Assembly: GCA_026026165.1 (NCBI GenBank)
Contig: JAPEUD010000043.1
Location: 1 to 64,000, forward strand
Source of the DNA: Sarea resinae
Taxonomy: Eukaryota
Direction of reading: 5' to 3'
Length of the DNA stretch: 64,000 nucleotides
Position 1 is the first letter of the stretch; each line of letters starts with the position of its first letter. This document shows, piece by piece, positions 1 through 27,314 of the stretch. The position numbers were made by a program, and so were the translations under genes. The notes beneath the pieces were generated by a model. That model was not told where the DNA came from. It searched no databases and saw only the letters and a list, made by a program, of their open reading frames with translations.

Positions 1-126
1 CCCTAACCCTAACCCTAACCCTAACCCTAACCCTAACCCTAACCCTAACCCTAACCCTAACCCTAACCCTAACCCTAACCCTAACCCTAACCCTAACCCT
101 AACCCTAACCCTAACCCTAACCCTAA
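1..126 (+). repeat. Telomeric repeat array (CCCTAA)21
   Basis: 21 perfect CCCTAA units from base 1; canonical filamentous-ascomycete telomere (TTAGGG on the minus strand). Confidence 0.99.
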
Positions 127-2758
127 AATTTGTAAATCCTAGGAAGACTTAGAGGTTATAATAGGTCTTAGAGGCTAGCCACTCTTTTATAGTGTCTACC
201 TAGCTCTTCTCTATTGCGATACTATTAGTCCTAATAATAAATCCTAAGAAATTAACTTTCTACACTTTAAAGATATATTTTAAGGGCTTTATATATAGGC
301 TATAGGTTGATAGCTGTTTAAGGACCTAGTGTATATACTTCTTATACTTATTAGGTGAATTAGAGTATATAAGAATGTTATCTAGATAGATAACACAGCA
401 GATATTAACTAGGCCTTATAATATATAATTAATATAGCTCTAAAATGTAGCAAGTGTATTAGCTAATCTAAAGAGCATAACCTTATATTTAAACTAGTTG
501 TAATAAGTGCAGAACGCTGTCTTATACTTATCGCCTTTATAGATCCTTATATAGTAGTAGGTATCCTTTAGGTCTAGTTTTAAAAAAACTTTAGCACTGC
601 TTATTTAGTCTATAAGCTTAGAAATAAGAGGTAATAGGTATTAATTCTTAATAGTAACCTTATTTAACGCTTAGTAGTTAATATAAAGTTATAAGCTACT
701 ATTCTTTTTAGGCACAAATAAGATTAGCGCACTAATAGAGCTTATAAAGAGAGTGATCTACCTCTTTACTAAGCTGTTATCTAGGTAGGTCTGTAGAATA
801 CCTAATTCTTTCTAGGATAATAGATATATAAGACTATAGAGAGAGTCTTTACTCTCTAACTTAATAGTATAGTTAGCTAGACTATGCTTAGAAAGTTAGC
901 TAGCTTTCTCTTTACTAAAGATAGAAGCAAATTCTTTATACTATTTAGGTATCTTATTACTAGCGCTAACCTAGTAAAGCTTTACTACCTCTATAGGTTT
1001 AGGCACTACTATAATCTCTTAGTAGTTTAGCTAACGTTTTTTCTAATGTTCTTTACTAAGCCTAGGCTTATCTATAGGCTTAATATAGCTAAATTTACCT
1101 TCTAACTAATATATATTATAGTAGTATAAGAATAGCTATAGATACCTAAGTAAGAATAGAGGACTATTAAAGTTATAGGTAAAGAACTAGCACTACACTA
1201 TCTTCTTTATACTATTACTATTAGCAACTTGTATTTCTAATTAGTATTAGCTGTAAATCACTACTTATAAGCTATTTACTATTACTACACTAGGTAGCTG
1301 CCTAAGCTTAGCCTTAGAGATCCTATACTCTTTAATCTATAATTATAAAACTAGAGAAGCTTCTACTCTTAAATTAATTAAGGTAGTGCTATTTGCTGTA
1401 CTACTAGAGGTGTAAATAGTTAGCAATGTCTCTAATCTTAGAGTTAGAGCTCTTTAAGATTCTTCTACACTAAGATAGTAAATAGTGTAGGGTTCTAGCT
1501 CTAGTTATAAAGCTAGTGTAGGCCTATTATTGCGTTTATTCTTATAAGTAGAAGTAAAGTAGCTCTCTTAGCTATAGTTTAGACAAAGGTTACCTTCTTA
1601 CCTATAGTAATACTCTTTATTAAAGAGCTATTAAGGCTACTATATAGTCTTATTACCTTTATTATTTTTAGGCTAAGCAGAAGTTTTTTATTCTTATAGA
1701 GGTAGGCTTTTACCCTTATATTTAGTAGGATTAAACTTTTATTTAGTTCCTTATTTATTCTAGCTCTTTTCTTTCTCTACACTATTACTATGCTATTGCT
1801 TATTATCTAGCTTAGATAGATTAGGGTTCTTATTCTTATTCTTTTTATTGCTTATATAAAGGAGTTTCTCTACCTAATTTGCTAACACTATAGCAGCGCT
1901 CTACTTTTATAGTATAGGTAGAGTTTAAAGCAGTTCCTAGTAAATTTCACTTTAGATCTTAGTATAGAATAAGTTGTATTGCTGCTTTTTAAGAATGTCT
2001 TATCTTTCTAGCACTTCTAGTTTAATCTGTTCTAAGAAAGCTGTAAAGCTATTAATACTCTAGTGCAGCGCCTGTGTAGCGTTATAGTATAGCTATAATA
2101 TTAAACTACTTTAATTTACTAGATCTTCTACTTAGTCTAGTAAGAATAAGATAAATTTATCCTAGGTATAGATATCTTTCTTAGTAGATTCTTTAACCTA
2201 GTGCTATACTAGCGCTAGTTTGTCTTTTAAGTACTATATAGTATATAGCACCTTTGCTATATTATTACTTTTATCTATAATAGTACTTAGTTAGAACGCT
2301 ATCTTATAGGATTAGATAAATTTATTATACTCTTTAATTATCTTACTTATAAATAGCTTTAGAGCTTAGATTTTAGTCTAGTTAGTAATATAAGGTGCTA
2401 GTATAGCAGCTATAAGGCTTTATCCTAGCTATAATACTTATATAAGTGCTTATAGTTATTATTCTATATAGAACTAAGCTATCTCTCTTTAAAGTTAATA
2501 ATATTAAGCTTACTACTCTTTAGCGTTATACTCTTACTATATTTAGTCTAGTAATTAATTAGTAATCTAGTTAGAGATAGGCTTTTTAACTTTACTTTCT
2601 ACTTAGCTTACTACTATCTTACTATTATCTCTATTAGCTTCTTTACTTAGTAGAGTATTAAGAGCCTTTATAGTATTATATATATTTATTATTACTATCT
2701 TACTTAGTCTACTACTATATTAGTAGAGCGTTTAGAATTATTAGACTACTTTCTAAAC
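127..2758 (-). mobile_element. Ty3/Gypsy LTR retrotransposon relic, gag-pol body, truncated by the telomere at the end of RT
   Basis: Minus-strand translation gives gag LYYNATQALH*SINSFTAFLEQ (~2090-2025); zinc knuckle CLNYS*ESYFTSTY = CLNCGQEGHFASTC (1585-1544); protease TLINLRVEASLV = ALIDSGAEASLV (~1385-1350), in frame with the knuckle; RT KGDKYKTAFCTYYN*FKYKVMLFRLANTLATF*SYIN and VIYLDNILIYS (YLDD motif), then L*VFLGFTNF ending at the telomere. Confidence 0.93.
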
Positions 2759-3299
2759 TAGGCTATCTACTTAGGTTTAGGTACTTAGCCTAAATTAAGG
2801 TTTAGGCGGGTTAGCCTGCCTGATTACATAATCAGGTTAGGTTTAGGCAGGCTTAATTAGCTGTAGGGCCTACAGCCTACCTATTAGGTATATACAGGTT
2901 GATTAATAAGATAAAGAGTAGATTAATAAGATAAGATTATTAAAAGGTAATATATAGAGGTAATATCTAGAGAGTAAATGCGATAAAACTATAGGAATTG
3001 TAGAATAAGAATAATAGTATAATAATACACTCTATATGTTTAGTTTATAGTGCCCTACATAATCTACACTATATAAAAACTACTAAATCATCCTCTAAAC
3101 CTTTATAATGTAGTATGTTTTACTAGAACTAATTCTACTCTAACAGAGATAAATATATGCTGTAGCATATACAAAGCAAACTACTACAAGTGTAACTATT
3201 CACGCAATTAAGAAGGAAATAGACTAGTTCTAGAAGAGAGCCTCTATGCCTTTAACCTAACAAATAAATTATCTACAGTTAAACGCAGGCGCTTTCTTT

Positions 3300-6023
3300 A
3301 AGACAATATAGATTAAGCGTTATTATACCTAGAGCGTTAAAGCAAAGACTGCTGCTATAAAGCAGGTTTATCTAGCTGCACTATAGGTAGAGGTAGAAGT
3401 AGTAAAGAGTGCTTATCACTAGAAAACCTATACAGGTCTGTGTTATCCTATATCGCAGGCCTACTATTAATTAAGGTTGGCTTATTATTATCACTAATAA
3501 CAAGTAAATAATCATTAAATTCAGCTGATAGCGTGTGTTAATAATTAGTGTCCTTAGAAATACTGTTAGATTTATCTTTACCTATATAGAAGCAGAGTTT
3601 ATCGCGATTAAAGTGCTTTACAACTATAGTGTTCTAAACTGTTTCTGCTAAAAAGCGACTTTAACAAAAGGTAATAAGGTCTTATACCTTATTAAAAGTC
3701 TGTTTAACACTAACAGCAGCTCTAGGTATAGTAAGAATGTCTTTTACTATTTGTTTAAGCAAGGGCTAGTAGTGTGATCGCTAGAACTAGTAGAATGTCA
3801 GCACCTACACATAGAAATGTTACCTAAAAGTGTTACCTGCAAAGGATCCTTATAATCTATAGCTGGCGAAGATAGATACTAACTAACTAGATCTGTAATA
3901 AAGCGATGTTGTTTCTAAAGCGTCTTAGCCTATGCAAGTGAATTAACATCTAATGCTGATATAGAGAGTGCAGCAACATCTAAGGAGGTAACTTTAGTTC
4001 TTACATAATGCAACTAATAATAGTCCTTAAATTCGCGCTAGTACTTTCGCAAATATTTATAGCCCTAGTTATTAGACTTCTTAGCTATTAGCAAAACATT
4101 CCTAGAGGATAAGGTAAAGGTAACAGATTTAGGTAACATACTTTATATAGATTAAGCCTTGTTAAGGGATTAAGGATGCATGCTAAATTAAACATTCTCC
4201 TCTGTACTCCTTTAGTATCTTAGTAGTACTTAGAGAGCTTAGTCTTTGCTGCTTCTATAGCAGAAGTAAGCTCTTGTTTCTAAGGTGTCTGCTTAAGCCG
4301 TATCTTGTTTAGATGCTTCTCTAAGTGCTTAAAAATCTGAGAGTATACAAACTAGGTCTTGTAGATAGTTACGCCTTTAGTCTAAGACACAGCTCTTGTC
4401 TAATCATTAAATAGCTTTAGTAAGACAATTAGATAGCGAATATAGTCCTAACTAGTAGGAGAGACACGAGTTCTGCGTATAGCAGGACTAGTTTCGCTAA
4501 TAAGAAACATCTAAAGGGCATCTCGCAGCTGCTAGGCCTGCTTCAGCATATTATATATTAAGTTCTATTGAGTTTTAACATCTTAGATTATATTAACTAG
4601 CGTTAGCTGCAGATTACAAAAGCGTGTAGTTTGCTGTAATAAAGCAGCAATATAGATAGCAAGTGCATAAATCTAGAAACTTTAGAGGTAGTAATAGACA
4701 AGGGTTGTTAGCACTTACCTTTTACAACGTGCTGCTAAAAGAGTCTTTAGAAGGAAGCTGCTAAAGCAGCTCTTAGTCTGTATCTAACTAGGTATCTTAT
4801 ATAGACTTGTTTAAAGCAGTAATTTTTAGGCACTTATTAAAAGCCACGACTGCAAGCTGAATGACATACATAAGGCAAGGCACACAAGCAACCTTATAAT
4901 CCTATACAATCTAATAGTGATTAGCAAGTAGACTTATTAGCTCTTAACGCATTGTGTTGTTATTACCTGCGTTATCTGTTGTCACAGCTAGTATACAATC
5001 CTACAATGTAATGTTACCTAAAAGCGTTACTATAAACATTAAAGACAAACCTAAATGTTAAAACACTAAAGTCGATTAAGTAGTAACGTAGCTATGTTAC
5101 AACTAGAGTGCTCTCTAGTTATCTTTTTAAACCCTAGGAGGACTTCCTAGTAATTCTAGTCTTTGTTAATAAAATACCCTATTATAGAAAGAAAGGATAT
5201 CTTATTTAGACTTTGCTATACATCTAGTGCGATAGAAATTTTGGTTTCTAGGCCTAGTCTCTATAGGATCCTTAGTAAGATCTCTGTATATCGATTATAA
5301 ATGTTATTATAAACCTATTATCGCCTTAGAATTCAAAGGCCTAGCTAGTAAAGAAGGAAGCATTGTTTAAACTAGTGGTTTTCTATAATCTGCTATAGAA
5401 GATTTGCTAATAGAATTATCTTAAGGAGAAGGCGTTACTAGCTTAACTAAGAGAATAGCTCTAAGGTTTAGAGAGTCTTTAGTGCTAAAGCATGTTGCTA
5501 GCATTAAGGATAGAGGTATTAGTTAAGAGATCTATTACATATAGCGATATCTTACTATAGTCTAAAGAGCCTTAAGTGTGTGTATTGTGCCTGCTATAAG
5601 AGACTAAGCACACTCTAGAGAGCTATAGTGCTGTTTTATTGCAGAAGTGCCTGTCCTCTTAAGACTAGAATGCTCTTACTAACGTCTGTATTATTAACAC
5701 ATTACCTCTAGGCAGCTAGTTGCAACATTAGCAACCTAGTAGAAGAGAGACTAGGTTGTGCTTTTCCGCGTCCTAGAATCCTATTAAGGGCTTCTATATT
5801 AACCTATATCTGTATAAGCAGTCTGCTACCACTAGAAGATAAAAGTATTATGATATAATTGCTGCTAAATAACTATTCGCTGTGTAGGATCTCTTTGTAA
5901 CACCTCTAGAACATAGTGAATCAAAGCTAAAGTAATAGTTATAGGTTTAGACTTAATAGCTGTAGACCTTTATGTACTATCCCTAAGTTCCTTATAGTCT
6001 AATGTTTCAAACGAATTAGACAT
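3300..6023 (-). pseudogene. hAT transposase, RIP-inactivated, several introns; 3' end approximate
   Basis: ATG at 6023 (acaATGt). N-terminal SLFY*VANVATSCLEVMC; ANLL*QIIENH*F; ISIALDV*QSLNKISFLSIIGYFINKD (first catalytic Asp region, ~5240-5160); I*DVKTQ*NLIYNML = QDVKTRWNSTYDML (~4590-4545); dimerization domain KDILTIPRAAVSVKQTFNKV*DLITFC*SRFLAETV (~3750-3640). Confidence 0.92.
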
Positions 6024-6349
6024 TGTAAAGGAGAAATTTATAGCGATAAGAAAGTGCAGAAGGCCTTAGAACATATAGCAGAGTAAAGAGGTAGGAAGTG
6101 CCCTTAACTAGAGAAGTATTTGCTTAAATGTTGATATTAAAGGTTGCTAGGTTTAGCATAACTAAACAAACACAGCAAAGAGACTATAAAGAGAGTAATA
6201 CAATACAGCTATCTACTAGAGTTATTAGGAGAGAGTTTATACAGCTAAAATTTAATTAAGAGAATGTGCATTCCTAACGTGATTAATATACACAATGTTA
6301 CTAGTAAGTGTTACCTTTTTAGTAAACTAAATTCTAGAGAAAAAGTGAA

Positions 6350-8300
6350 AATCCACCCCTAGGCAGACATAGACTAATAAAGAAAAGCCACTTAGCTATA
6401 ACTGCCTCTCTACTTATCGCTATCCCTAGCAGCACTAGAACTAGAGTCCTTCTCTTTAGCATTATTAGTAGAGTTATCCTCACTCTCCTCTATATTAATA
6501 GGAACATTCTTAGCTGTTGTTAGTAGAGCCTCCTCTATAGCAGATCTAGCAATAGCAGGGTCCTCTCCTTTAGGAATATCCTCTAGCTAAGTTTTCTCTC
6601 CTATAGTTAGCAGCACAAAGTCTTCCTTATCACTTAAGATTAGGTTAATATCCTTATCAGATAATAGAAACACTTCTGCTTCTAAATTGCTAAACCTAGT
6701 AAAATTAGTCCTAGCCTCTGTATCACTATTAGAGAGGGTTGCACAGTCTTTAACCTGCTCTACAAACTCTAACATTACCTCCTTTAGATTAAGATCACTA
6801 GCTTCTACTAGATTATTATAGCTATAGCGGTAGATATCTCTCTTATAGCAGCAGACTACTTTTAGCAAGCGACTTCTAATGCGTTTGCCCTATGCTCTAA
6901 ATAACAAGTCAGGCTTATCTAAATTTTGTCCTTGCTAAACTAATTAGATAAATGCTGCAAAGAAACGTTACCTAAAAGTGTTACCTTAGGATCGGCACCA
7001 CTATTAGGTTAGCTATCTCTATTGTCTTTAAGTAGCAAGATATTAACAACATCCTTAACTATCTACTTGTTATCCTTAGCCTTTGCTTTCTCTGCCTTAA
7101 TAGCCTTTTACTGCTGTATAGTAACCTACTTAGCAGACTAGTAGAGGAAAAAGCGTCGTTCTATTAATTTGTCTATTTTAGGGTCTATAACAGTCTCTTT
7201 AAAGTCTTATCGTTGTGCTGTTATTATACTAGCGTAATTATTCTCGCGACAGAGTTTGCCTCTTAAGGTGGATTTTGCTTTCCTATCTACTCTATCTGCT
7301 TTTTTTAGTGTCTTCTTAAACTTAGTATCGCTGAGTTTACTATCTAGCTCTAACTCTAATGCTTTAGACTTTGCTTCCTTAAGCTACGCTCTAGCAATCT
7401 GTTGTTGTTTGCTGTAGAGAACTATCCTAAGCCTTATCTTACTAGTATAATGTCTTTGTAGGCAGGCTTTTACACGTTCTACTAGGCTAGCTATCTCTAG
7501 GTCAAATGTTCTCTTAGGATAAGAGGAAGTTGTAGGGGTTGCACTATAAGTTGCACTAATATTAGTCACTAGCAAACAATATTACCTAAATGTGTTACCT
7601 TAGACATCTCTTCCTAAGAGTAGAAGAGTCTAAGCTCTCTAGCTTATTATTAAGGTTAATCTCCTTCTGCTTCTGTCCTTTAGATATAGTCCTATTACTT
7701 TATTAGCTTTGTGTTTAGAAGTGTTACTAGGATATGTTACTACTTCTACTTCTTATAAGCCTTTCCTACTTTGTCTAAAAACTTTGCTTTTCTAACCTTG
7801 TCTAAGAAATTTGCTTTTGTCTTCTTAACAACAAAGACTATCTTAACTTTATTGCTGCTGTTATCACTAGAGTAGCACTATCAGCAGATATCTACAGAAT
7901 GTGTTACCTAAATGCGTTACCTAGCCTTACTATCTGTCTTCTTATTACTACTTCTTTTCTAACTGCTGCTACTATACAGAGAATTGTTTATAACTCTATC
8001 CTTAAGATCTATAGGCAGTTAGTTATTGTCTTTATATTCTTCTATATCTAGACTTAGCGCAGTTGTGCTAGATTTAGCTTTCTTAAGCTTTTGCTGTTTC
8101 CTAAACTAATGTAAGCCTTTTGTAGTACTATTATTACCTTAATGTGTTACCCTTAGCTCTAAGCTGCTAGTAGGCTATGATTTCTAGGAAGAAGTAAGTT
8201 TCACCTTACTTTTATCTCACTTAGAAGTCTAGAACTCACCTCTTCTTTATAATAACAGTTTTCTCTATAGCTGCCTTATTTTAAGAGAAGCTTGTAGGAG
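6350..8300 (-). pseudogene. Unidentified multi-exon cargo gene relic inside the hAT element
   Basis: Coding-like minus-strand frames broken by TAA/TAG, e.g. KETVIDPKIDKLIERRFFLY and RIRSRLLKVVCCYKRDIYRY, including ORFs 6587-6868 and 7384-7575. Intron-like segments end in ttgcag/gctag/ctgtag. No family recognised; boundaries approximate. Confidence 0.5.
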
Positions 8301-8391
8301 ATGTAAGTGATTTAGAGAGTAATTAGCTAGCTATCTTATCACTTTCTACTGCCTAAACAGTTAGAGAGTTAATAGGATTAATGAAATTAAT

Positions 8392-8848
8392 GAAATCTTA
8401 ATAATGTTAATAACAGAAGTAATAAAATTAGAGAGAAAGAGCAACCCTCCTACTATAAGAGAAGGTTGCTAATAATGTAGGTAGTAAGGTTAAATTACGT
8501 GGTGGATTTAGGCACGCAAGATTTAGGCAGAAGGTACGTACCTTATTAAACAGTTAATAACATTCACTGCAAGGTACATACCTTATTAAACAGTTAATAA
8601 CATTCACTGCAAGGTACATACCTTATTAACTAGCTAATAACACTAACTAAGGTATATACCTTGCAGTAAATATTTACCTTAATATTATATAGGTCTACTA
8701 CTTAATTTAACCTTACTACCTATATTATTAGCAACCTTCTCCTATAGCAAGAGGATTGCTCTCTCTTATTAACTTTGTCACTTCTATTATTAAACTAATA
8801 AGACTTAATAAACTTTATCACTTCTGTTATTAGTATTATTAAGATTTC
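8392..8848. repeat. Inverted repeat (arms ~8392-8509 and ~8691-8848) enclosing a 40-bp tandem repeat (8531-~8670)
   Basis: gagcaaccctcctactataagagaaggttgctaataatgtaggtagtaaggttaaatt is mirrored at 8691-8766, and 8392-8430 is mirrored at 8808-8848. The centre has two near-identical copies of aaggtacRtaccttattaaacagttaataacattcactgc plus a degenerate third. Confidence 0.9.
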
Positions 8849-9128
8849 TCTCTTAGTGCTCTTTAAGTTTTAAGGTTAAGGTGAGTTTTAGAACTACTAC
8901 TTAATAGTAACACATTTAGGTAACATTTAAGACTGCAAAGGCACTCAGCTAATTATTCCTAACTACAGACAACTCTCTAGATTCTTTCTTTAATACTAAC
9001 TAAAGATTCTCCTTTAGCACTCTCTACACTACACTCTTACTCTCTTAACATAATTATAGTCACTAATACAGTAAGTTATTCTTTCCTACCTCTACTAGTA
9101 ACACTTAATAGTAACATTTTACTAGACA

Positions 9129-9861
9129 ATAGCTTGTACTAAGCGTACTACCTGCAAGACTGTCCCTAGTACTAGTAGGAAAGGAAAAGGAAAAGGTAAG
9201 GGAATATCTGCTGCTAAGGCTTATTGTGTTACTAGTAGCAAATCCCTACGCAAGAACTTAGCTAGTATAGCAGCATGCAAAGGTTGTCTTGCTACTAGAC
9301 AACGCTTCACTACTAGCACATATGCTAAACGCTAAAAGGCCTACAAAGATGCTATAAAAGCATAGGTTTATAAGGATACTGCCTTTTATAGTTGTAGTAA
9401 GGTTTATAGTGTGCCTAAACTAATCTAACTCTGTTGCACTTGTCTAGGCAGTAAGTCTTAGTCTCTAAACTCTAAGGGTAACACATTATAGTAACATTTA
9501 AACACTATAGCATCTGCACTCTATAAAATCAAGAGATTGCAAAAATCTATTAATTTAGTCATTCTAAAGCTCTCTTTCTAGCGCCTAGTCTGCAAGGTTA
9601 TATCTTATCACTGCTACCTCCTTAGAGAGCTCTGTTTTTAGTTATTAGCTATATATGCCTTGCAAGAAGCCACTAAGGCTTTTATAGTTAGGTTCTTTAA
9701 AAGTGAGTTTTTCTATCTCTTCTTCTATTCTATACTTAATTTTTCTAGATGTGCTTTAGGCCTGCATTTATTAGAACTGTGTGACTATTAATTACAAAGA
9801 CACTTAGTTTATTAAGGCTTTAATAAAGGGCTTTAGTATCTAGATCTCTAGTGACACATAG
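9129..9861 (+). pseudogene. Histone H3-like variant gene, RIP-inactivated, carried by the hAT element
   Basis: Exon 1 (9129-9450) IACTKRTTCK...TSSKSLRKNLASIAACKGCLATR...CCTCLG = MARTKRTARK...TGGKSPRKNLASxAARKGRPATG...RRTRPG. Intron 9451-9510. Exon 2 TSALYKIKRLQKSINLVILKLSF*RLVCKV...LCF*LLAIYALQEATKAFIVRFFK matches H3 [28 protein letters not shown]...LRFQSSAVMALQEA. Intron 9703-9748. Exon 3 ACIY*NCVTINYKDT*F matches AIHAKRVTIMPKDIQL. 3' end approximate. Confidence 0.9.
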
Positions 9862-9909
9862 GTTAAGTTTCTATAGCATTAGCTCTAAGGTTTTACTAGT
9901 CCTAGTAGC

Positions 9910-9957
9910 GCAATTAGGGATGCAATTAGGGATGCAGTTAGGGATACAATTAGGGCT
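9910..9957 (+). repeat. 12-bp minisatellite (GCAATTAGGGAT) x4
   Basis: Units gcaattagggat, gcaattagggat, gcagttagggat, acaattagggct downstream of the H3-like gene. Confidence 0.85.
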
Positions 9958-10307
9958 TCTCTAGTCTTCTAGTCACAGGTCATAGGAAGTTATAAGAGGC
10001 TTATAGTTTTTCTCTGCCTTTTAGCATTTTTAGTCTTTACTTTACTTAGTCTACAATAAAGACTTAATAGACTTAGTAACATATATAGGTAATATTTGTA
10101 GAGTAATAGCGGCTTTTTAATGCTCTGTAAAACATGCCCTACAATCTATGCTATTTTAGCTACTATCTTTATGTCATGTGATAGGTACCTACACCTACCT
10201 ACTAGGTCTTATCAGGTAGGTTGATTAGGGCATAGGTACTTAATACCTATACCTAGGCAGGTTCTTCTACCTCTACCTACCTAGTAGGTACCTAAGTAGA
10301 CACTCTA

Positions 10308-10960
10308 TTCTAAACTTCTAGCTATAGTAGAGTAGGTAAGAATAGTATAATTAAATAGGCTAGTGTATTATAGCATGCTATTATTACTCTAGCAATATAG
10401 AACTAATACTATAGATATAGATATTACTAGTAGGCACTAACTTTATAATTGCACTAAATACTAGCTCTAATAGCTAGCGCCTCTATTAATCTATATAACT
10501 AATAACCTTACTTAGCTTACCTAAACATTACTAAACTACACTAGGTAGTTACTTTATACTACACTAAGCTATATATAGCATAACTATTAGTAGTAGCTCT
10601 TATAATAAAATAAGAAATATAAGCGATTAGAGAGAAAATAAAACAAGAAATATAAGTAAAAAACTTATAGAATTAGCTTCTTTACACTTATACTAGTGTA
10701 TCTTATTACTTATAACAAATAATTATATAATAATGTAATAGATCTTTAGAGTTATTAAATTATAATAGAACTTATTATAAAATTATCTCTATATAATATG
10801 TGGTTATAGAGTTATTATAGTTAGAAAACCCTAACTAACTATAAAAACTTCTAATTCTAACCTATATCCTATGTATATTATTGTCTTAGGCAGGCTATTA
10901 AATAGATAAGGTATTAAAACAAGGAGATAGTTATATTAGATAGTTAAACTTATAGTAACA
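10308..10960 (-). mobile_element. Probable 5' part of the Gypsy element (gag start, leader, possible LTR ~10734-10960)
   Basis: Continues the host sequence beyond the right TSD and is as heavily mutated as 127-2758. A TG...CA bounded segment (TGTAATA at 10734, GTAACA ending 10960) lies near the RIP boundary. No partner LTR is available to confirm it. Confidence 0.5.
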
Positions 10961-11379
10961 CAGATAAAGCAATTGTATCTGATAACTCTATAGATAATTA
11001 GAATGCATGATTGAAAAATCCGTACTCTTTATAGAATCTAACCTATTTATAGGGTTCTTTAGGCCTATATATCGCCGGCTATCTCGTCAAAAATGGGTTG
11101 CTAGTGCAGAGCATCATTCTCGTGGTCGTTATCATCATTGTATCAGCTGTATCGTCAAAAATAATATCCTTTGCCCATGCGACGACGCTCATAATATTCG
11201 CTTTTATCATATGGCTCAATGCAACTCCTCCCCTCTTCCACTCTGAGCCGAATCGAGCATTTCCTCCCTCTCCGGCCATACCATCTCTCCTATCCGTTCA
11301 TGATTCATCATTCGGATATGCAGAGTTCGATGAGAGTCACCGAGTGACTTAACGACCGCGCTTTAAATCCGCCGAACCC

Positions 11380-13160
11380 TCACAACGAATCAGCCGACCA
11401 CTTACCCTTGGCTCGAATCCGTCTTCCGTAGATATAAAAGAGGAACGGAATCGGGATCATTGCCGCAGCGAAAAAGCCCAGAACGCTCGAGGCCCATCCG
11501 ATGCCCATATGATGAAACATGGGAGTAGCGAAGAGAGGGAAGACGCCACCCAAGATGCTCCTTAAGAAGGTATTGGCAGCGATGGCACTTGCTGCGTATC
11601 TCAGGAAGACGTCGACGAGGTAGTTGAGCGCAGCTTGGAAGATTGTCGTGAAGCCTAAGCCCATACAAGCCGCTCCAATGCAGCTTGCTATCCATGGGAT
11701 ATCTTTGTCCGAGGTCCAGCCGAAGATAAATAGGCCACCACTGAAAAATACGGAGCCGATCATCATTGGTGGTAAGCGTGCTTCAGGGACAGGACGGCCG
11801 TTGTTCGCTTTCAATCGGCTAATGTAGAAGCCTTGGTTCAAGATGTTGACCACCGCGCCGAAGAGGATGCCACTGCCGAGAAAATGGTCAGATTGATGGA
11901 TTCGGGCGAATTTGGGGGGGGGGGGCTTACATTAATAGAGCCAGAAATGGAAGAGAGCCAACAAGCGGATTCCAGCCACGATGTTCCTGAAATACTATAG
12001 GAAATGAGGCCAGGTTCAGGTAAACGATACCATAAACGAATGAGGCATACAGGGCGACTAGGAAACAGATAGGAGTCAAGAGCATCTGAAACGGCCTGAC
12101 CAGGTATTTGGTTGCGAGCTCTCTGAGACTGACATCCCATTCTTCGTGTCTGGCATGGAGAGCCCAGTTGCCGGATTCATGGCGGAGTCGACGAGCTTTG
12201 TAGACCAGGAGTACTGGTGGATAGCTCTCATCCAGAATCAGGACGTCGAGAATCAATATGAAGAACATCCAGATTGCCGTCAGCTAAGCAAATAAGCAAA
12301 TGCACCAAGGATGACAGCCTTCACGTACGTATTCGGTCCACCTCCACCGCAGATAGCTTTGCACTACGGCGCCTCCAATGATGGGCCCCAGACACGGTCC
12401 AACGACGACGGCTAATGCGTAAAAGACAATGGCAACGCCACGTTGCTCTGGCGCCCAGATGTCACCCATCACACCACCTGTATTGGTGACCGGCGCAGAG
12501 GCGAATAGGCCCGCAAAAAAGCGAGTCAACAACACCGTCTGAATATCCTTGGCCGTCGCGGTGCCGATGGAGAAGACGGCGCCGATAAAGTATGGCGTCA
12601 AGACGGCCGGTTTCCGCCCATAGACCTCAGAAAGTGGCGCCCAGAGGAGCGTGCCAAGTCCGAATCCAAAGAGGAGGAACGTCAGACCCAATGTGGAAAC
12701 CTCCTGCCCAACATGGAAATGATCAGATATTTGCGGAATGCCTGGCGAGTAGCTACTCTCGGTCAGCGGGGATGAATTGTCATTGAGATGGGTCATACAT
12801 TGCACTGGCCAATGTCGCCCCCATGGTGGTCATCCCATACAACGCCGTCGTAATGCACTTCTTCCCAAGGGACCAATTTAGCGGATGATAAAGATCATCC
12901 TTGCCGTCAAAGTCAACAATGGCATCTCCACCGGTCTTGCTGCGCGTCAACGGGTGTGTGAACCGGCGCGGCACATCAGGCCTGCTTCTCAAGCGAGAGA
13001 GCACAGATGATGTCGTCCGTTTATTGATGGCCCTGCCCGTACTGCTGGCGGTATCGGATTTTTCGAGGTCGTGGTCTTTGCTGTTGTCGGTTTCGCTGCT
13101 TGGATCAAGGGCCGGTGGCGACCTAATCTTGCCCTCGGTTTGTGCTGAAGATTCGGCCAT
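11380..13160 (-). CDS. MFS DHA1-family multidrug/polyamine transporter (spliced)
   Basis: Starts MAESSAQ. Motifs VDFDGKDDLYHPLNWSLGKK, WAPLSEVYGRKP, LTRFFAGLFASAP, DESYPPVLL, PEARLPPM and YAASAIAANTFLRS; about three GT-AG introns. Confidence 0.93.
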
Positions 13161-13803
13161 TGTGCACAAATGATTGCGCACTTCGATGCAATTTAACAGC
13201 TTGTCAACAAATTGAATCCATTGTATGAGCACCAAATCTCATCTATCGGAGATGACAGCGGCATTTTATAGATTGTGAGTGAGGTCATTGATTATCGGAC
13301 ATAAGTCATCGGCGACCGAGTAGGCCTCGGCCGACGCGAGCAGGACCCTTGTACGAAGTACGTACATAGTACGTCCCGGTCTGACATCGCTTATCAGATC
13401 GCCGTGTTCAGGGTCTCTTTCTCTTCGATGCAGTAAGATATGAGCTCGATATACCCAATGATTCTACAGCAAACCGAATTGCCAATACGTGTTTGGTTTC
13501 CTCGGGGGACGGTAAAAGACTACGCTATGCATACATGTATATTATGAAATAGGGAATGAGTCAGAAGACAGCAGTAGCCATGATTGCTTCTCCACAGCAC
13601 CTCACCCCTCTCCTTTCTCATTCCTCGTAGCCCCCTGAGAAGATCGATCGATCGGTTAATCATTCAAGCAAGCAAACAGACCACTTTTCAAACATCGTAC
13701 TTCAAGTTCACCTGTATTACCCTCATCGTTTGGGGCGTTCCCAGCCTAGCCCAGCCCAGCCCCGACCCGTCCCTTTACCATCAATCTTTCAACGGGTACC
13801 AAA

Positions 13804-16800
13804 TCACACACTCTGTCCTCTTTTCTCCCTCTCATCCTTGCCCCGCCTCGTCTCCCGCTCCACCAATTTGACAGCATCCGTCATGGCATCACCGCCGACC
13901 CTCCAGCTCCTCAATAAGATGCCCTTGCGATCCAATATTTGCTTCGCACGTACCCATCTCCTCTTCCAGAGCTCCTCTTTCTTGTTGATTGGCTGCTGCT
14001 GCTGCTGTTGTTGCGGATAATTCGCCGACCGGCTGTCAGATTCGTAGTTGCTTCCGTTCCACGTGTTGCTGATGGTGCTAGAAGCGTATTGGGCTGCTTC
14101 GGCCGGATAGGAAGTAAGGGGCTTTCTTGGAGGTGGCGGAGGAGGTTTAGAAGAGCCATCGTCGGACACGGCAGAAAGGGAATCGCGCGAGGAACGCCGC
14201 GAGGATAGACGGGAAGTTCGGCGCGAGGCGTCCTGATCCTGAGATTGGGTCCCATACCAGTACGACGACGCGGATGGCATACTATTATAGGCCGAGGCTA
14301 CTTTCTGGCGCACACTGGACCTGTAGCCCTGCCGCTCGGCACTATTCTCATTGCCTAGTTGCGAAAAATCTCCTGATTGTGCCGAGGACACTTGAGTTTC
14401 ATCTTCGCCGATTTCCAAAGGACGAGAGCTATTTCGAGGCTTTGGTGGGGGCGGTGGAACCTTTTTGGCTGGTGGTTTCAAATCATCCGCGGATGACGAA
14501 CTGCCAGGACTTCTCAATGCCAGTGGCTTTGCTGGCGGCGGTGGCGGGCGAGATTTTCCTTTGGCAGCCAATGATCCCGCGGCATCTTGCCTGTGGCGTG
14601 ATTCAAATCCGATGTCCGTCATGGACCGCGAGTCCAGTGGTACCCTTCTTGGCGGAGAGGGAAAAGACGGATCATCCTCGTCGAGATCTATAAGCTTTCC
14701 CATCGCCGGCTGTGTTTCCGTAGACGTTGTTGCAGCGGACTTCATAGACGGTCGCGGAGGTAAGACAGGTTTTCGTTGGGGTGATCGCCGAAGGGGCTCA
14801 ACTCGCTGTGGCGGTTCTACCCCGACCACCGAAGAGCTCCTCCCATCCCGAAGCCCGCTGGAAAGATCGACATTGCTGAGTGAAGCAGGCGAAGAATCGA
14901 AGAATCCCTTGGATGGTGGCGTCGTCACATCCCTGATAAAGATACCAATGATTCTTCCAGGATGTGCAAGAGCAGTGTCGGTATATACCTCAAGGTCCGC
15001 TTCTCCGCTATCGCCCACGAGGATAAACTTCCTTTGGGGAAAATCTGCGAGTAACTTTTCCAGCGTGCCCTTCTTCCTTTCAGCTACAGGCTCAAATATG
15101 CCCTGTAACATTCCGCTATATTGTTTCAGATGGTACGACCCTGAAGGCAAGCCGGCCATGGCAAAGAAAGTGCTAATGACGGGATAGAGCTGCCATGGAG
15201 CATTGGAGACATAATGCATTTGAACACCCATACTAGAAAGTGTTTGATACCACTCTTTAACTCCGTCAACGGTCAAGTCCTTGAGATCTCGGACAAAGGT
15301 ATTGCGAAACATCTCTCGAGCGCCCCCACCAATCGCGGAATGCTTGATCGTATCATCGATGTCACTTATCAGACTAACGCCAGTCGGTTCGATGATTCTG
15401 ACCTCAGCGGTAGCTGATAGATTCTCCGACGCGAGAACTCTGACGCTCGTGGGCACAAAATCCAAAGCGGCTCGTATGTTGAAATGGCCGCTATCATTCG
15501 TCACGATCGTTCGGGATCTCGATGTCTCGTCATCAAAGAAGAAGACTGTAATCGGCGTGGCAGCTAGCGGCGTCGTCATGAAAGGCTTCAGTCTTGCCAT
15601 CAGATGGGCATTAGCAATGCCCAGCTCTGCGGGGTTCATTGTTGTTGACGGTCCCCACGAGGTTGCCTTGGATAGATATCCTGGTGCCGGTTCTTTCTCC
15701 GGGTTGGAATTCAAGGACGAGTCCGTCAGAGGGTGTATGATATGTCCAGGTTGAGGTGATTGTGAAGATTGCCTTCGTCTCGCTCCAAGATCCGAGTCTG
15801 ATGGGTCCTCACTGTACCCTCCACGGCCAGCAACATCAGCCTCTCCCTCGCCCCTTTTCATGATCTCTTCCGCTTCCTTTGAGACCAGATCCTCGTCTCG
15901 CCTGGCAGTCCTCGAGCGCTCCCTGGTCGGGCTCGTGGGCCGACTACTCGTAGGGCTAGCGGGGCCACTGGGAGGCCTCGATGAGGATGGCGCAGGAATT
16001 CCACTCAATTGCCTTGCCAGTCCAATCAACAGTCGGTTCCTCCGGGTCATCGGGCCCCGCTGCGGAGAATATATCCATCCACGAACATCCACATCGACAA
16101 TGGCACTATCATCCTCGTATTTTTCCCACTCTCTCCGCCAAAACTCCGCGTCGCCCGCACCAGAAGTATCTCTCGAGTCCCGTCCGGAACCAGCATCCTC
16201 CTGTATAGTTCCTGGCTCTGCTCTTGGTTTCTTCTTCACGTGTCTCCTGGCATAGCTAGGAAACAAGACCATTTCCTCATCGCCACTCCTGACAATATCC
16301 ACATCAGGGAAGGCACCCGGTATTCCAGCCCCATTCTCGTCGACCTCAGGATCTCTTTGGCCTCGCGGTGCCAGATATGACTGCTGATAAGACTGGCGTA
16401 GCTCGTTGGCCGCCTTCAAGTATCCAGCCAGTTTTCGTCGCCGGGCTCCTCGTTCTCTCTGCTCGGGCGGAGGACTGCCCCCCCTCTCCGACAAACCAGA
16501 CGCAGACATTCCAGACATTGGTAATTTCAATCTCTGCCGTCTCGAGACAACATGATGAGACTGTGACTGTGACTCGGCAACGACCTTTTGGCTTCTTCCC
16601 CTTAGTAGCGCAAGGATTCCGACCCCAGCAGCTCGTCTCTGTCGACGACGATGTTGTCCGTCGAGAAGATAACGATAGATGCGCGAATGCGCGCGTTGTC
16701 GATAGAAAGGCAAGGTCTCGTGTCTAAAGTCAAAAAGCCCGGAACGGGCACGTCGATGGGTCGCCGGGAACAGGTATCGCAGCAGCGAGGACTTATTATG

Positions 16801-24925: not shown

Positions 24926-27314
24926 TTAGTCCGACTCGGCATAGCTGATCTTTTTCGCTCGCGAACTTTTCCTTGCCCCGCCGCGTGCTACACTTACAGG
25001 GACAGCCAATTCCACATCGGAAATCGGTGCTGGAGCCTCCGAATCTTCTTCGTCCGACGTGGATGGGGTTGGCACACTCTTCAATACCCGTTTCTTGCGC
25101 GCAGCTTTCTTGACAGTCGCTTTGGCTTTCTTGATCGGAGGTGTGGTCTCCTTCACGGCCTGTCCCACTCCGGGTGGGGACTTGGCGGCAATCTTACGCT
25201 TTTTGACAGGCGTCGTCTTTAGGGTTTCCTTGCCATCATCGCCAGTCTTCTTTTTCACTACCCTCTTCACCGGTCTCAGCCATTCCTCCATTCCCGGAGG
25301 CCAGTAGACTCGACCTTCGGGACCGCCCATTCCCACATCCTCTTCTGGAACAACACTGGGTCCAGCCTGTGCGAGCTCTTCTTCTATGTGCTCGGCTGCT
25401 TCGACTTCGACTTCCTCTGCATTTACCTTCTTGGACCTCTTCTTCGGCGTGGTCTTCTTGGGCACTTTGACCGGTTTGTTGTCGTCATTCCGTACGTGTG
25501 GTATGATATCGCTGAACGAGTTCCATCCGGGTAATCTAAAAGTCCTCATGAGCTCAAAGACTGCCTGCTCTTTATCTTTTGCTTCTATCATGAGATCCAT
25601 AGTGGGATCACAGGGCGGCAAGGTTGCCACTCGTGGATTGTGCTTCCTTCGCTGACGACCAGTAATAGCACTCGGAGTCGGTTCTGAATAGTGCATTTTT
25701 TGTGTGATTCGCTTTCTGGTCCACGTTTCTGATATCTCGTCGTACAACGGAATGAGATCCATCGTGCCCTCGCGCACCTTCTCCGCATCAAAGATGATAT
25801 TGTGGTGATGGTAGTCCAAGACCATGGGAATATTAAGTTCCTTGCAGATTGGGAGGAGGTCATGGACCGACCAGCTCACGTCGTCATTCTCCAACACTAG
25901 CCGATTTTTGATATTCTGGCTGAGGCCCTTGTAGTTCTCACGAAAGCGGTTCAAGGTTGCTTCCTTGTCCCCAAAGACCCCTCCCATGTGTAGGATCATG
26001 ACAGCATCTCGGTCTTGTTGCGGTGGAAGCTTCAGCAGACTCAGCATTTCGGCATGGTATTCTAGGTCCCTGATGGCATTCCTGATGACTTCTTTTCGGG
26101 GAGAACCGAGTTGAGTAAACTAGACGAACAATTAGGTTCGCTTCTCATATCTCCGTCATGAGCATCCATACCTGACCCGGATGAGTCGAGACTCTGTGGC
26201 CAAGCTCGGCAACAACCTTCCCGGTTTCTTTCAATACTTCCGCCGCGAATGGTTCTAGTTTGTAGCCATACTCCTCGTGACTGGCAAACGGAAACATCTC
26301 ACTGCTAAGTCGTAGAAACTTGATCCCGTATCGATCATTCCATTTCAGCATTTTGATGATGTCCCTCGCATTGGCCAGCCCAATGTTTTCAACATAGGCT
26401 TGACCTCTTGAAATGCTTGCCGGCTGCTCCTTGTCCGGCCTATTCTTGATCGCATGTTCGGGTTGGTTTGGGTCCTTGAGGGGATGGCGATGTTCGAGAA
26501 TAGATGCGATCCGACATGTTCGAGAGCTGAAGACGGGAGGATTCGAGTACCGAAGATATGTGCAGAGGCATGCCTTTGCAAATCAGTAGATGAGCTCAAG
26601 GTACTAAAAGTTGCCACTTACGTATCCCAATCGACCATTCCAAGGTAGTGGGAGAAAATCGCTATGAACGGGAGGAGGTCTGGTCAGGGCCTCCCTAACT
26701 TCCTCCTCGTCGACATCATCTAGGCCCTCGGCTTCCGGATCAACTATTTCCGTATCTATATCATCCGACTTTGATTTTGTCGGAGACGTTGACGACCTGT
26801 TAGAAGCTCGCGGTTTTCCCTTTGCGGCCTTCTTGCCCTTCAATGGCTTGTTTTCCTTTTCAATTTCGGATAAATCTGACAGTGAAGAATCCGAGCTCAA
26901 GTCTGGCATTCGGAAATCGCTAGAAGGCATGATGTTGTCCTGGGTAGTCGCGTCGATGGCGCCAGCTGCCGCCAACGTCTGTGGATCCAAAAGGGCGCCA
27001 CTTTGGCCGTGGAGTGTGGAATCGAAATCCGGTTCGGTGGCATTATGGTCAGTCGTCAATCGCGTTGGCGCGCGCTTGATTGTTCTCTTCGCCTTGAGAC
27101 CAGGTATCTCAAGCTGCAACGGTATAGCAGGTAAATCATTCCGCGATGTTGTGGTCGCAGTTGCTGCTGAAGAACGCTTCCTCTTCACCATGATTTCCCA
27201 TGCAGAATGTCCAGGGCGAGAGAACGAAGCCAAAAGGATTGGTCGCAATGGCGGTGGCGAAAGACTAGTCCGGAATGCAGGAACAGCGCCACGCGCCCGG
27301 AGACGGGCAAGCAT
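24926..27314 (-). CDS. uve1: UV-damage endonuclease (UVDE), spliced; alternative downstream ATG at 27191
   Basis: LPLPWNGRLGY, FLRLSSEMFPFASH, HRVSTHPGQ, MILHMGG, RLVLENDD, VLDYHHH, QKMHYSE and DLMIEAKDKEQA. Confidence 0.93.

Follow-up and report, generated by a model that had tools for sequence, protein, structure and literature searches.

In the present study, we analysed a stretch of 64,000 nucleotides from Sarea resinae (contig JAPEUD010000043.1, positions 1 to 64,000 of the forward strand, called the window as a whole), with attention to a histone H3-like gene (H3L) at 9129-9843. The first 126 nt or so of the window are CCCTAA telomere repeat (1-126), and the 11-kb block that follows carries the marks of repeat-induced point mutation (RIP). 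It is very probable that positions 9129-9450 are exon 1 of H3L, and that this gene rides a 7.5-kb transposon of the hAT type which was inserted into a repeat of the RIP-mutated subtelomeric block. The parts of the gene, as read from the window, are the following.

9129-9843, plus strand: H3-like gene, three exons, about 202 codons
9129-9450, plus strand: exon 1, the entire N-terminal tail, with an ATA start codon and three in-frame stops
9162-9230, plus strand: insertion 1 of the tail, 23 codons, GK-rich, no stop, placed by the gap after K9/S10 in the RIP-aware alignment
9300-9410, plus strand: insertion 2 of the tail, about 36-39 codons, two TAA/TAG stops, placed by the gap after G33 in the same alignment
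9451-9510, plus strand: intron 1, GTAAGT..TATAG, 60 nt, phase 1, after PG
9511-9702, plus strand: exon 2, alpha-N to alpha-2, with loop 1 three codons longer than in H3 and two in-frame stops
9703-9748, plus strand: intron 2, GTGAGT..TCTAG, 46 nt, phase 1, the frame running on into exon 3
9749-9843, plus strand: exon 3, end of the histone fold (..RVTI..KD..), three in-frame stops, terminal TAG at 9841-9843
9071-9125, plus strand: putative 5'-untranslated region (5'-UTR) intron, GTAAGT..CTAG, 55 nt, proposed from its sequence and its likeness to intron 1

The removal of intron 1 joins GGC A/CA and gives P-G-T-S-A-L, which corresponds to P43-G44-T45 of H3. The histone fold was detected by PF00125 on the plus strand at 9510-9701 (E=0.0025, under the curated cut-off), and exon 2 matched H3 proteins down to E=2.8e-17 when it was searched by phmmer against 1.84 billion representatives; raw exon 3 gave no alignment with H3 by BLASTP. 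An end-to-end alignment to canonical H3 which takes RIP into account covered 133 positions, comprising 50 identical, 41 reachable by a transition and 42 incompatible, and against H3 it opens two gaps in the tail, of 23 and 39 codons, and one of 3 codons in loop 1. The putative 5'-UTR intron is 75% identical over 51 nt to the 5' part of the intron at 9451-9510. The possibility that the element holds two H3-like copies was rejected, as only a single H3-like fold was found in 130-11000. This copy of the gene is dead: its ATG has become ATA, and it holds eight premature stops, all of them TAA or TAG and each reachable from CAA, CAG or TGG. No frameshift was found across the three exons, every defect being of the RIP type, and there was no stop-free stretch of 30 residues in the informative parts of the translation with stops read as X (X-read).

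The translation of 9129-9461 reads IACTKRTTCKT / VPSTSRKGKGKGKGISAAKAYCV / TSSKSLRKNLASIAACKGCLATR / 36-37 residues with two stops / VPKLI*LCCTCLG. The sequence-only reading had described here a remodelled H3 tail, and our translation agrees with it. For a statistical comparison, the raw translation of exon 1 was aligned locally to residues 1-46 of canonical H3 (from P0007), and the decoys were 600 segments of 321 nt, drawn at random from the same AT-rich block. The raw tail scored 40 against 16.3 +/- 3.3 for the decoys (maximum 28), and none of the 600 equalled it. When transitions were reversed in the TpA context, the score was 76 against 39.2 +/- 9.1 (maximum 67), again equalled by 0/600 decoys. 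Fully permissive reversal, which is a weak test, gave 104 against 81 +/- 8 and was equalled by one of 400 decoys and none of 300 codon shuffles. By database search, the raw tail had no alignment with an H3 by BLASTP at E<=100 and no histone among its PDB matches by phmmer at E<=10. At the level of the predicted translation, the likeness of the tail to H3 is beyond chance.

At the codon level, the residues named earlier were found as described. The first codon is ATA, from which ATG is recoverable by transition reversal, and the positions of R2, R8, R26 and R42 are TGT/TGC, from which CGT/CGC are recoverable. K4, K9, K14, K18 and K27 were said to be kept, and all five codons are AAG or AAA; the ARK(S/T) contexts around the retained lysine codons are kept as well. 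The loss of K23 is borne out, as its codon ATA can be reversed to A, I, M, T or V and not to K. S28 has been replaced by G, the only reading of GGT. The codon assigned to K36 is CCT, which yields only P, so that no Lys is recoverable there. Here one refinement is needed: the GVPKP of the tail can be aligned with the canonical GVKKP in two ways, and therefore the lost lysine is either K36 or K37.

Both large insertions of the tail (23 and 36-39 codons) are in frame with the H3-like gene. It had been recognised at the outset that one or both might prove to be unrecognised introns, in which case the mature tail would be near canonical length. Insertion 1 does start with GT, and the excision of 9162..9218 (57 nt) would leave an insertion of four residues. 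This is the only in-frame pair among the 11 GT..AG pairs at insertion 1; the other ten shift the frame, including both that start from the GGTAAG at 9196. The latter donor, which had been pointed out at about 9195, gives excisions of 40-43 nt and was rejected. At insertion 2, none of the eight pairs is in frame. Moreover, the GTCCCT donor at 9162 and the purine-rich body behind it are unlike the three good T-rich introns of the gene, which start with GTAAGT or GTGAGT. We consider the intron explanation highly improbable. The other doubt, that the insertions might not be conserved among homologous elements, found no support either: no indel or joint is listed inside 9129-9843 among the copies in the likely source genome, which indicates that the tail architecture is older than the amplification of the element. 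For insertion 2, no match was present among the phmmer results, either in the 1.84 billion representatives or in PDB.

Insertion 1 had further been compared with the tail of H4. We examined this by aligning insertion 1 with the quoted H4-tail string and with 2000 order-shuffles of that string. In the raw sequence, 307 of the 2000 shuffles equalled the true string, so that the raw likeness is compositional only and this part of the claim did not hold. After permissive reversal, only 3/2000 did so, and to this extent an order-specific likeness stood. Since the likeness was chosen post hoc in a low-complexity region, it is to be taken as suggestive.

The H3-like gene sits between the terminal inverted repeats (TIRs) of an element which is bounded by a target-site duplication (TSD).

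2751-2758: left TSD, TTCTAAAC, 8/8 identical to 10308-10315
2759-2776, plus strand: left TIR, TAGGCTATCTACTTAGGT, as compared with the reverse complement of 10290-10307
2759-10307: class II element of the hAT type, 7,549 bp, RIP-mutated and multi-copy, defined by the TSD and TIRs and by contig comparison
10290-10307, minus strand: right TIR, reverse complement TAGAGTGTCTACTTAGGT
10308-10315: right TSD, TTCTAAAC
3400-6900, minus strand: remnant of the transposase gene, with approximate bounds, many stops and several short introns

The 18-nt TIRs are identical at 15/18 positions, two of the three mismatches are transitions, and both begin with TAG. An 8-bp duplication together with short TIRs is the signature of hAT elements. 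Copies were surveyed with 4,670 contig pieces from one sequencing run, probably that of the source genome, which matched 130-11500 at an identity of >=80%; two other runs contributed next to nothing (5 and 3 pieces). In this survey, five joint rows link 2743-2752 straight to 10310-10315 and skip 7,557-7,569 bp; these empty-site joints indicate that other copies of the surrounding repeat lack the 7.56 kb. The summed contig depth was 6,800-34,000 over 130-10770, as compared with 332 in the unique bin 11150-11500, and transitions made up 820/888 (92%) of the listed difference kinds among the copies. TA/AT over the element (2759-10307) was 1.87, against 0.63 at 12-64 kb. The H3-like gene was amplified together with the element. 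Along the element, the summed depth is higher at the H3L end (9,700-15,500 at 8490-10390) than in the middle (6,800-9,700 at 5830-8489), depth not being copy number; such a pattern would be explained by shorter derivatives in which the gene is retained, like the 2.3-kb form reported for Pyrenophora.

The transposase is also broken in this copy. In its X-read minus-strand frames, we recognised by eye several motifs which we take to be hAT-like, namely ISIALD..LLGFKK.. (5234-5260 and 5102-5122), AVTTDNAG (4965-4988), ILNPLTRLNLYK (4142-4177) and PSNL.YQHL (6125-6151), the last of them presumably BED-finger-like. Upstream of it, the minus strand of 7000-8400 gave no Pfam family.

Some repeated structures inside the element were also observed. 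In the interval that separates the minus-strand genes from H3L, a large imperfect palindrome was seen within 8392-8848; its arms (8407-8506 and 8694-8793) are 100 nt long and 84% complementary, and they enclose three 40-nt tandem repeats (8531-8650). It may represent a small nested element, or else a promoter region that is shared. In addition, a bipartite 19-nt motif, GTAACAC-N-TTTAGGTAACA, occurs 10 times against 0.02 expected, always inside the transposon, and two looser copies are present in the H3L introns. The 12 sites lie within 2947-10094, on the plus strand at 2947, 4120, 8907, 9098, 9478 and 10076 and on the minus strand at 3818, 5012, 6966, 7580, 7902 and 8132, the strand being mostly that of the nearby gene. 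The motif stands about 20-27 nt past a GT donor and 8-15 nt ahead of YAG. Three of the sites (7580, 7902 and 8132) mark putative introns on the minus strand upstream of the transposase remnant; these suggest that a further gene lies on that strand, or that the transposase gene has a long 5' part, comparable to the 'central ORF' (open reading frame) of the Pyrenophora element. Within H3L, both GTAAGT introns hold the shared internal motif, and intron 2 is without it. The short introns of the element thus seem to share internal sequence, a feature that we take to be reminiscent of introner-like elements.

The protein relatives of H3L were sought in several collections. By HMMER, 37 matches at E<=0.001 were obtained among the 1.84 billion representatives; the best of them were canonical H3 proteins with about 43% identity, in exon 2 only, and the tail insertions were present in none of the 37. 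The non-canonical matches include an extra H3 of Talaromyces stipitatus, the only one of them to be named by cluster look-up, and CenH3-like proteins; they have a longer loop 1 and the string ALQEATEAF(L/I)V, and their raw identity of 40-51% is not decisive. When the X-read H3L was used in a word-indexed protein search, nothing was obtained, because RIP destroys the exact five-residue words on which such a search depends. A metagenome scan with P0035, the closest of these proteins, gave 80 loci, of which the best P0035-like ones look CenH3-type by eye. When the exons of the window were compared with these 80 loci by tblastn, there was no match to the tail, and exon 2 reached 48% identity at best.

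These relatives raise the question whether the gene might be a RIP-mutated duplicate of a host H3 or CenH3 gene, present in the subtelomere by chance and outside any transposon. The lengthened loop 1 and the string ALQEATEAF(I/L)V are held in common with the CenH3-like P0020 and P0035, and the P0035-like locus L076 looks CenH3-type by eye. Against this, the gene is enclosed by matching TIRs and an 8-bp TSD, the host repeat in other copies runs straight on where the 7.5 kb would be, and the tail is H3-like and not CenH3-like. The many-fold coverage of the gene by diverged contigs contradicts a host duplicate, and we regard this explanation as scarcely credible.

Certain results weigh against the reading of H3L as a formerly coding gene on a hAT-type element. 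In the six-frame Pfam scan of 1-11400, in which stops were read as X, no family was found besides Histone and RVT_1; nine minus-strand pieces searched at E<=10 gave no family; the word-indexed protein search found nothing for the transposase piece; and phmmer against PDB gave chance matches only for the transposase region. As no homology tool finds the transposase, the assignment to hAT is based on the length of the TSD, on the TIRs and on the motifs recognised by eye. For insertion 1, the stops were 0/23 in the reading frame and 0/22 in frame 2, and for insertion 2 they were 2/37 and 1/36, respectively; the stop density does not separate the frames, and the coding status of the insertions is therefore likely but unproven. 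The summed contig depth over the gene (9,700-15,500) is not a copy number, and the residues before RIP are not readable from one copy. Finally, short motifs of this element (10-14 nt) had no match in the consensus file of six Mycosphaerellaceae elements, so that a kinship with the described families is putative.

With such results in mind, the H3-like gene could be taken as a decaying passenger, that is, a host H3 locus captured at the DNA level, the changes of which would be neutral and which would never have been functional. For the H3L proteins of Pyrenophora tritici-repentis (Ptr), Manning et al suggest, in the text of their report, that they 'may have undergone drift' (PMC3538342). In our gene, the 42 incompatible positions among 133 stay so even after transition reversal, insertion 2 is without matches, and stop density separates no frames. 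However, the length differences of 23, 36-39 and 3 codons are all multiples of three and no frameshift is present, the splice sites of both coding introns still fit the consensus, and the premature stops are all RIP-reachable TAA or TAG; after a long period of neutral drift, frameshifts would be expected. We therefore look upon the passenger explanation as possible, although on the unlikely side.

It was also suggested that the ancestral protein may have served as a tool on chromatin, by offering extra acetylatable lysines or by acting as a decoy for the methyltransferases of K9, K27 and K36. The retention of K4, K9, K14, K18, K27 and ARK(S/T), the replacement of K23, S28 and one of K36/K37, the H4-like order of residues after reversal (3/2000 shuffles) and the indirect signs of coding constraint would be consistent with such a function. 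The case for it is drawn from sequence, and this copy is dead; the raw H4 likeness is not significant (307/2000) and was picked after the fact; and no intact relative with such a tail is present in the 37 HMMER matches or the 80 metagenome loci. Such a function is distinctly unlikely.

The reading that we prefer is that of an H3-like gene carried by a transposon and inactivated by RIP. From the in-frame length changes (three or four), the surviving splice sites and the RIP-type stops, we infer that the gene was coding before RIP, and it would have been kept as a protein-coding gene until then. Its product was probably an H3 variant with the capacity to pair with H4. The tail of this variant would have been longer and richer in lysine, with the contexts of K4, K9 and K27 kept and without K23, S28 and one of K36/K37. 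The present copy adds only to the telomere-adjacent AT-rich, presumably heterochromatic DNA.

The surroundings of the element were also examined. The 11-kb block after the telomere has about 30-35% G+C, as against about 50-55% in the other 53 kb. In the block, TA/AT is 1.6-2.0 and (CA+TG)/(AC+GT) is 0.3-0.8, with 0.63 and 1.26 at 12-64 kb. The test for a RIP-mutated repeat gave TA/AT of 1.87-2.04 and (CA+TG)/(AC+GT) of 0.71-0.83, where the gene-rich part has the same 0.63 and 1.26 as above, and the block is accordingly classed as such a repeat. On the minus strand, the six-frame Pfam scan found an RVT_1 remnant (about 233-715, E=1.4e-14). This RIP-mutated retrotransposon remnant directly adjoins the telomere, and it is part of the repeat that received the hAT-type element. 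The first ordinary genes start about 3 kb past the AT-rich block, and the following are among them.

13804-16518, minus strand: APP1-type phosphatidate phosphatase (PF09949, E=4.6e-50)
24926-26047, minus strand: fragment of a UvdE UV-endonuclease (PF03851, E=1.3e-51)

The best named relatives of the 904-residue APP1 orthologue are from Candelina, Pleopsidium, Pycnora, Acarospora and Candelaria, with 53-56% identity, and the next are from other Lecanoromycetes, Geoglossum and Xylona. Among the 120 APP1 matches listed, none bears the name of a Dothideomycete. As judged from this one orthologue, the host is nearest to the lichen-forming Candelariomycetes and Lecanoromycetes and not to the Dothideomycetes.

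Transposons of the hAT type with H3-like genes have already been published; the host lineage and the detailed tail anatomy described here are new. In the text of their 2013 report, Manning et al described a 5.6-kb hAT element of Ptr with an H3-like gene, of which there are 26 near-identical copies, all with insertions in the N-terminal tail and belonging neither to canonical H3 nor to CenH3 (PMC3538342). According to the same text, a 2.3-kb derivative also exists, the copies are intact, and expressed sequence tags are available (PMC3538342). As far as that text describes it, the Ptr element has in common with ours that it is a multi-copy DNA transposon with hAT features, an H3-like gene beside the transposase and insertions in the tail. 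The Ptr element is about 5.6 kb with near-identical intact copies, whereas ours is 7.5 kb and every frame has been destroyed by RIP-type transitions.

Dhillon et al (2019) described hAT elements of about 9.5 kb with H3-like copies killed by RIP in six Mycosphaerellaceae, and the text gives an 8-bp TSD, TIRs of 18-20 bp and H3-like sequences in AT-rich blocks, some elements holding two H3-like copies (PMC6710886). The 8-bp TSD, the TIRs in the 18-nt range, the AT-rich block and the RIP-inactivated H3-like gene, as described in that text, are shared with the element in the window. The tail is not discussed in the text of the paper, in which the words 'tail' and 'lysine' have 0 occurrences (PMC6710886). 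By eye, the Cercospora zeae-maydis consensus given there has GTAAGT..TAG interruptions at the same two positions and in the same phases as in our gene, and its tail is without long insertions (PMC6710886). Capture of an intronless retrocopy was inferred in that text for P. fijiensis (PMC6710886), and the introns seen by eye in C. zeae-maydis sit uneasily with it.

Canonical H3 resembles the gene in the ARTK..ARK..TGGK.PRK..AARK..PATG..PGT skeleton and the fold, 91 of 133 positions being identical or reachable. Our gene differs from it by about 66 more codons than the 136-residue canonical H3, by the replacement of K23, S28 and one of K36/K37, and by the longer loop 1. A classification as canonical H3 was rejected on its length of about 202 codons, the 42/133 incompatible positions and the three length differences. 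A longer loop 1, and in alpha-2 the string ALQEATEAF(L/I)V, are common to the gene and the fungal CenH3 type (P0020, P0035-like L076). CenH3 tails are without the K4/K9/K27 skeleton of H3, whereas the tail here is significantly H3-like. The locus L076, which looks CenH3-type by eye, has a tail unlike that of H3 and an intron that is placed differently. CenH3 was likewise rejected: loop 1 is longer by three codons, yet the tail is H3-like.

Within the literature searched, and as far as the texts of the reports go, transposon-borne H3-like genes have been in print from Dothideomycetes only, and no other report was found beyond this class. A bolder proposal, in which we place little confidence, is that the link between hAT elements and an intron-bearing H3L is old and selected across classes of Pezizomycotina, and that the variant would alter the chromatin marks of its own element or compete for silencing enzymes. 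The cases in the Dothideomycetes and in a lineage near the lichen-forming classes would then not be accidental captures, and the tail would keep K4, K9 and K27, drop K23, S28 and K36/K37, and gain a segment like the H4 tail (GK/AK(H)R). The tail anatomy described here offers something concrete to test. As compared with the elements in the published texts, a case near the lichen-forming lineages, with by-eye intron positions the same as in Cercospora and a recognisable tail skeleton, makes a long-lived and possibly selected partnership of hAT and H3L more plausible.

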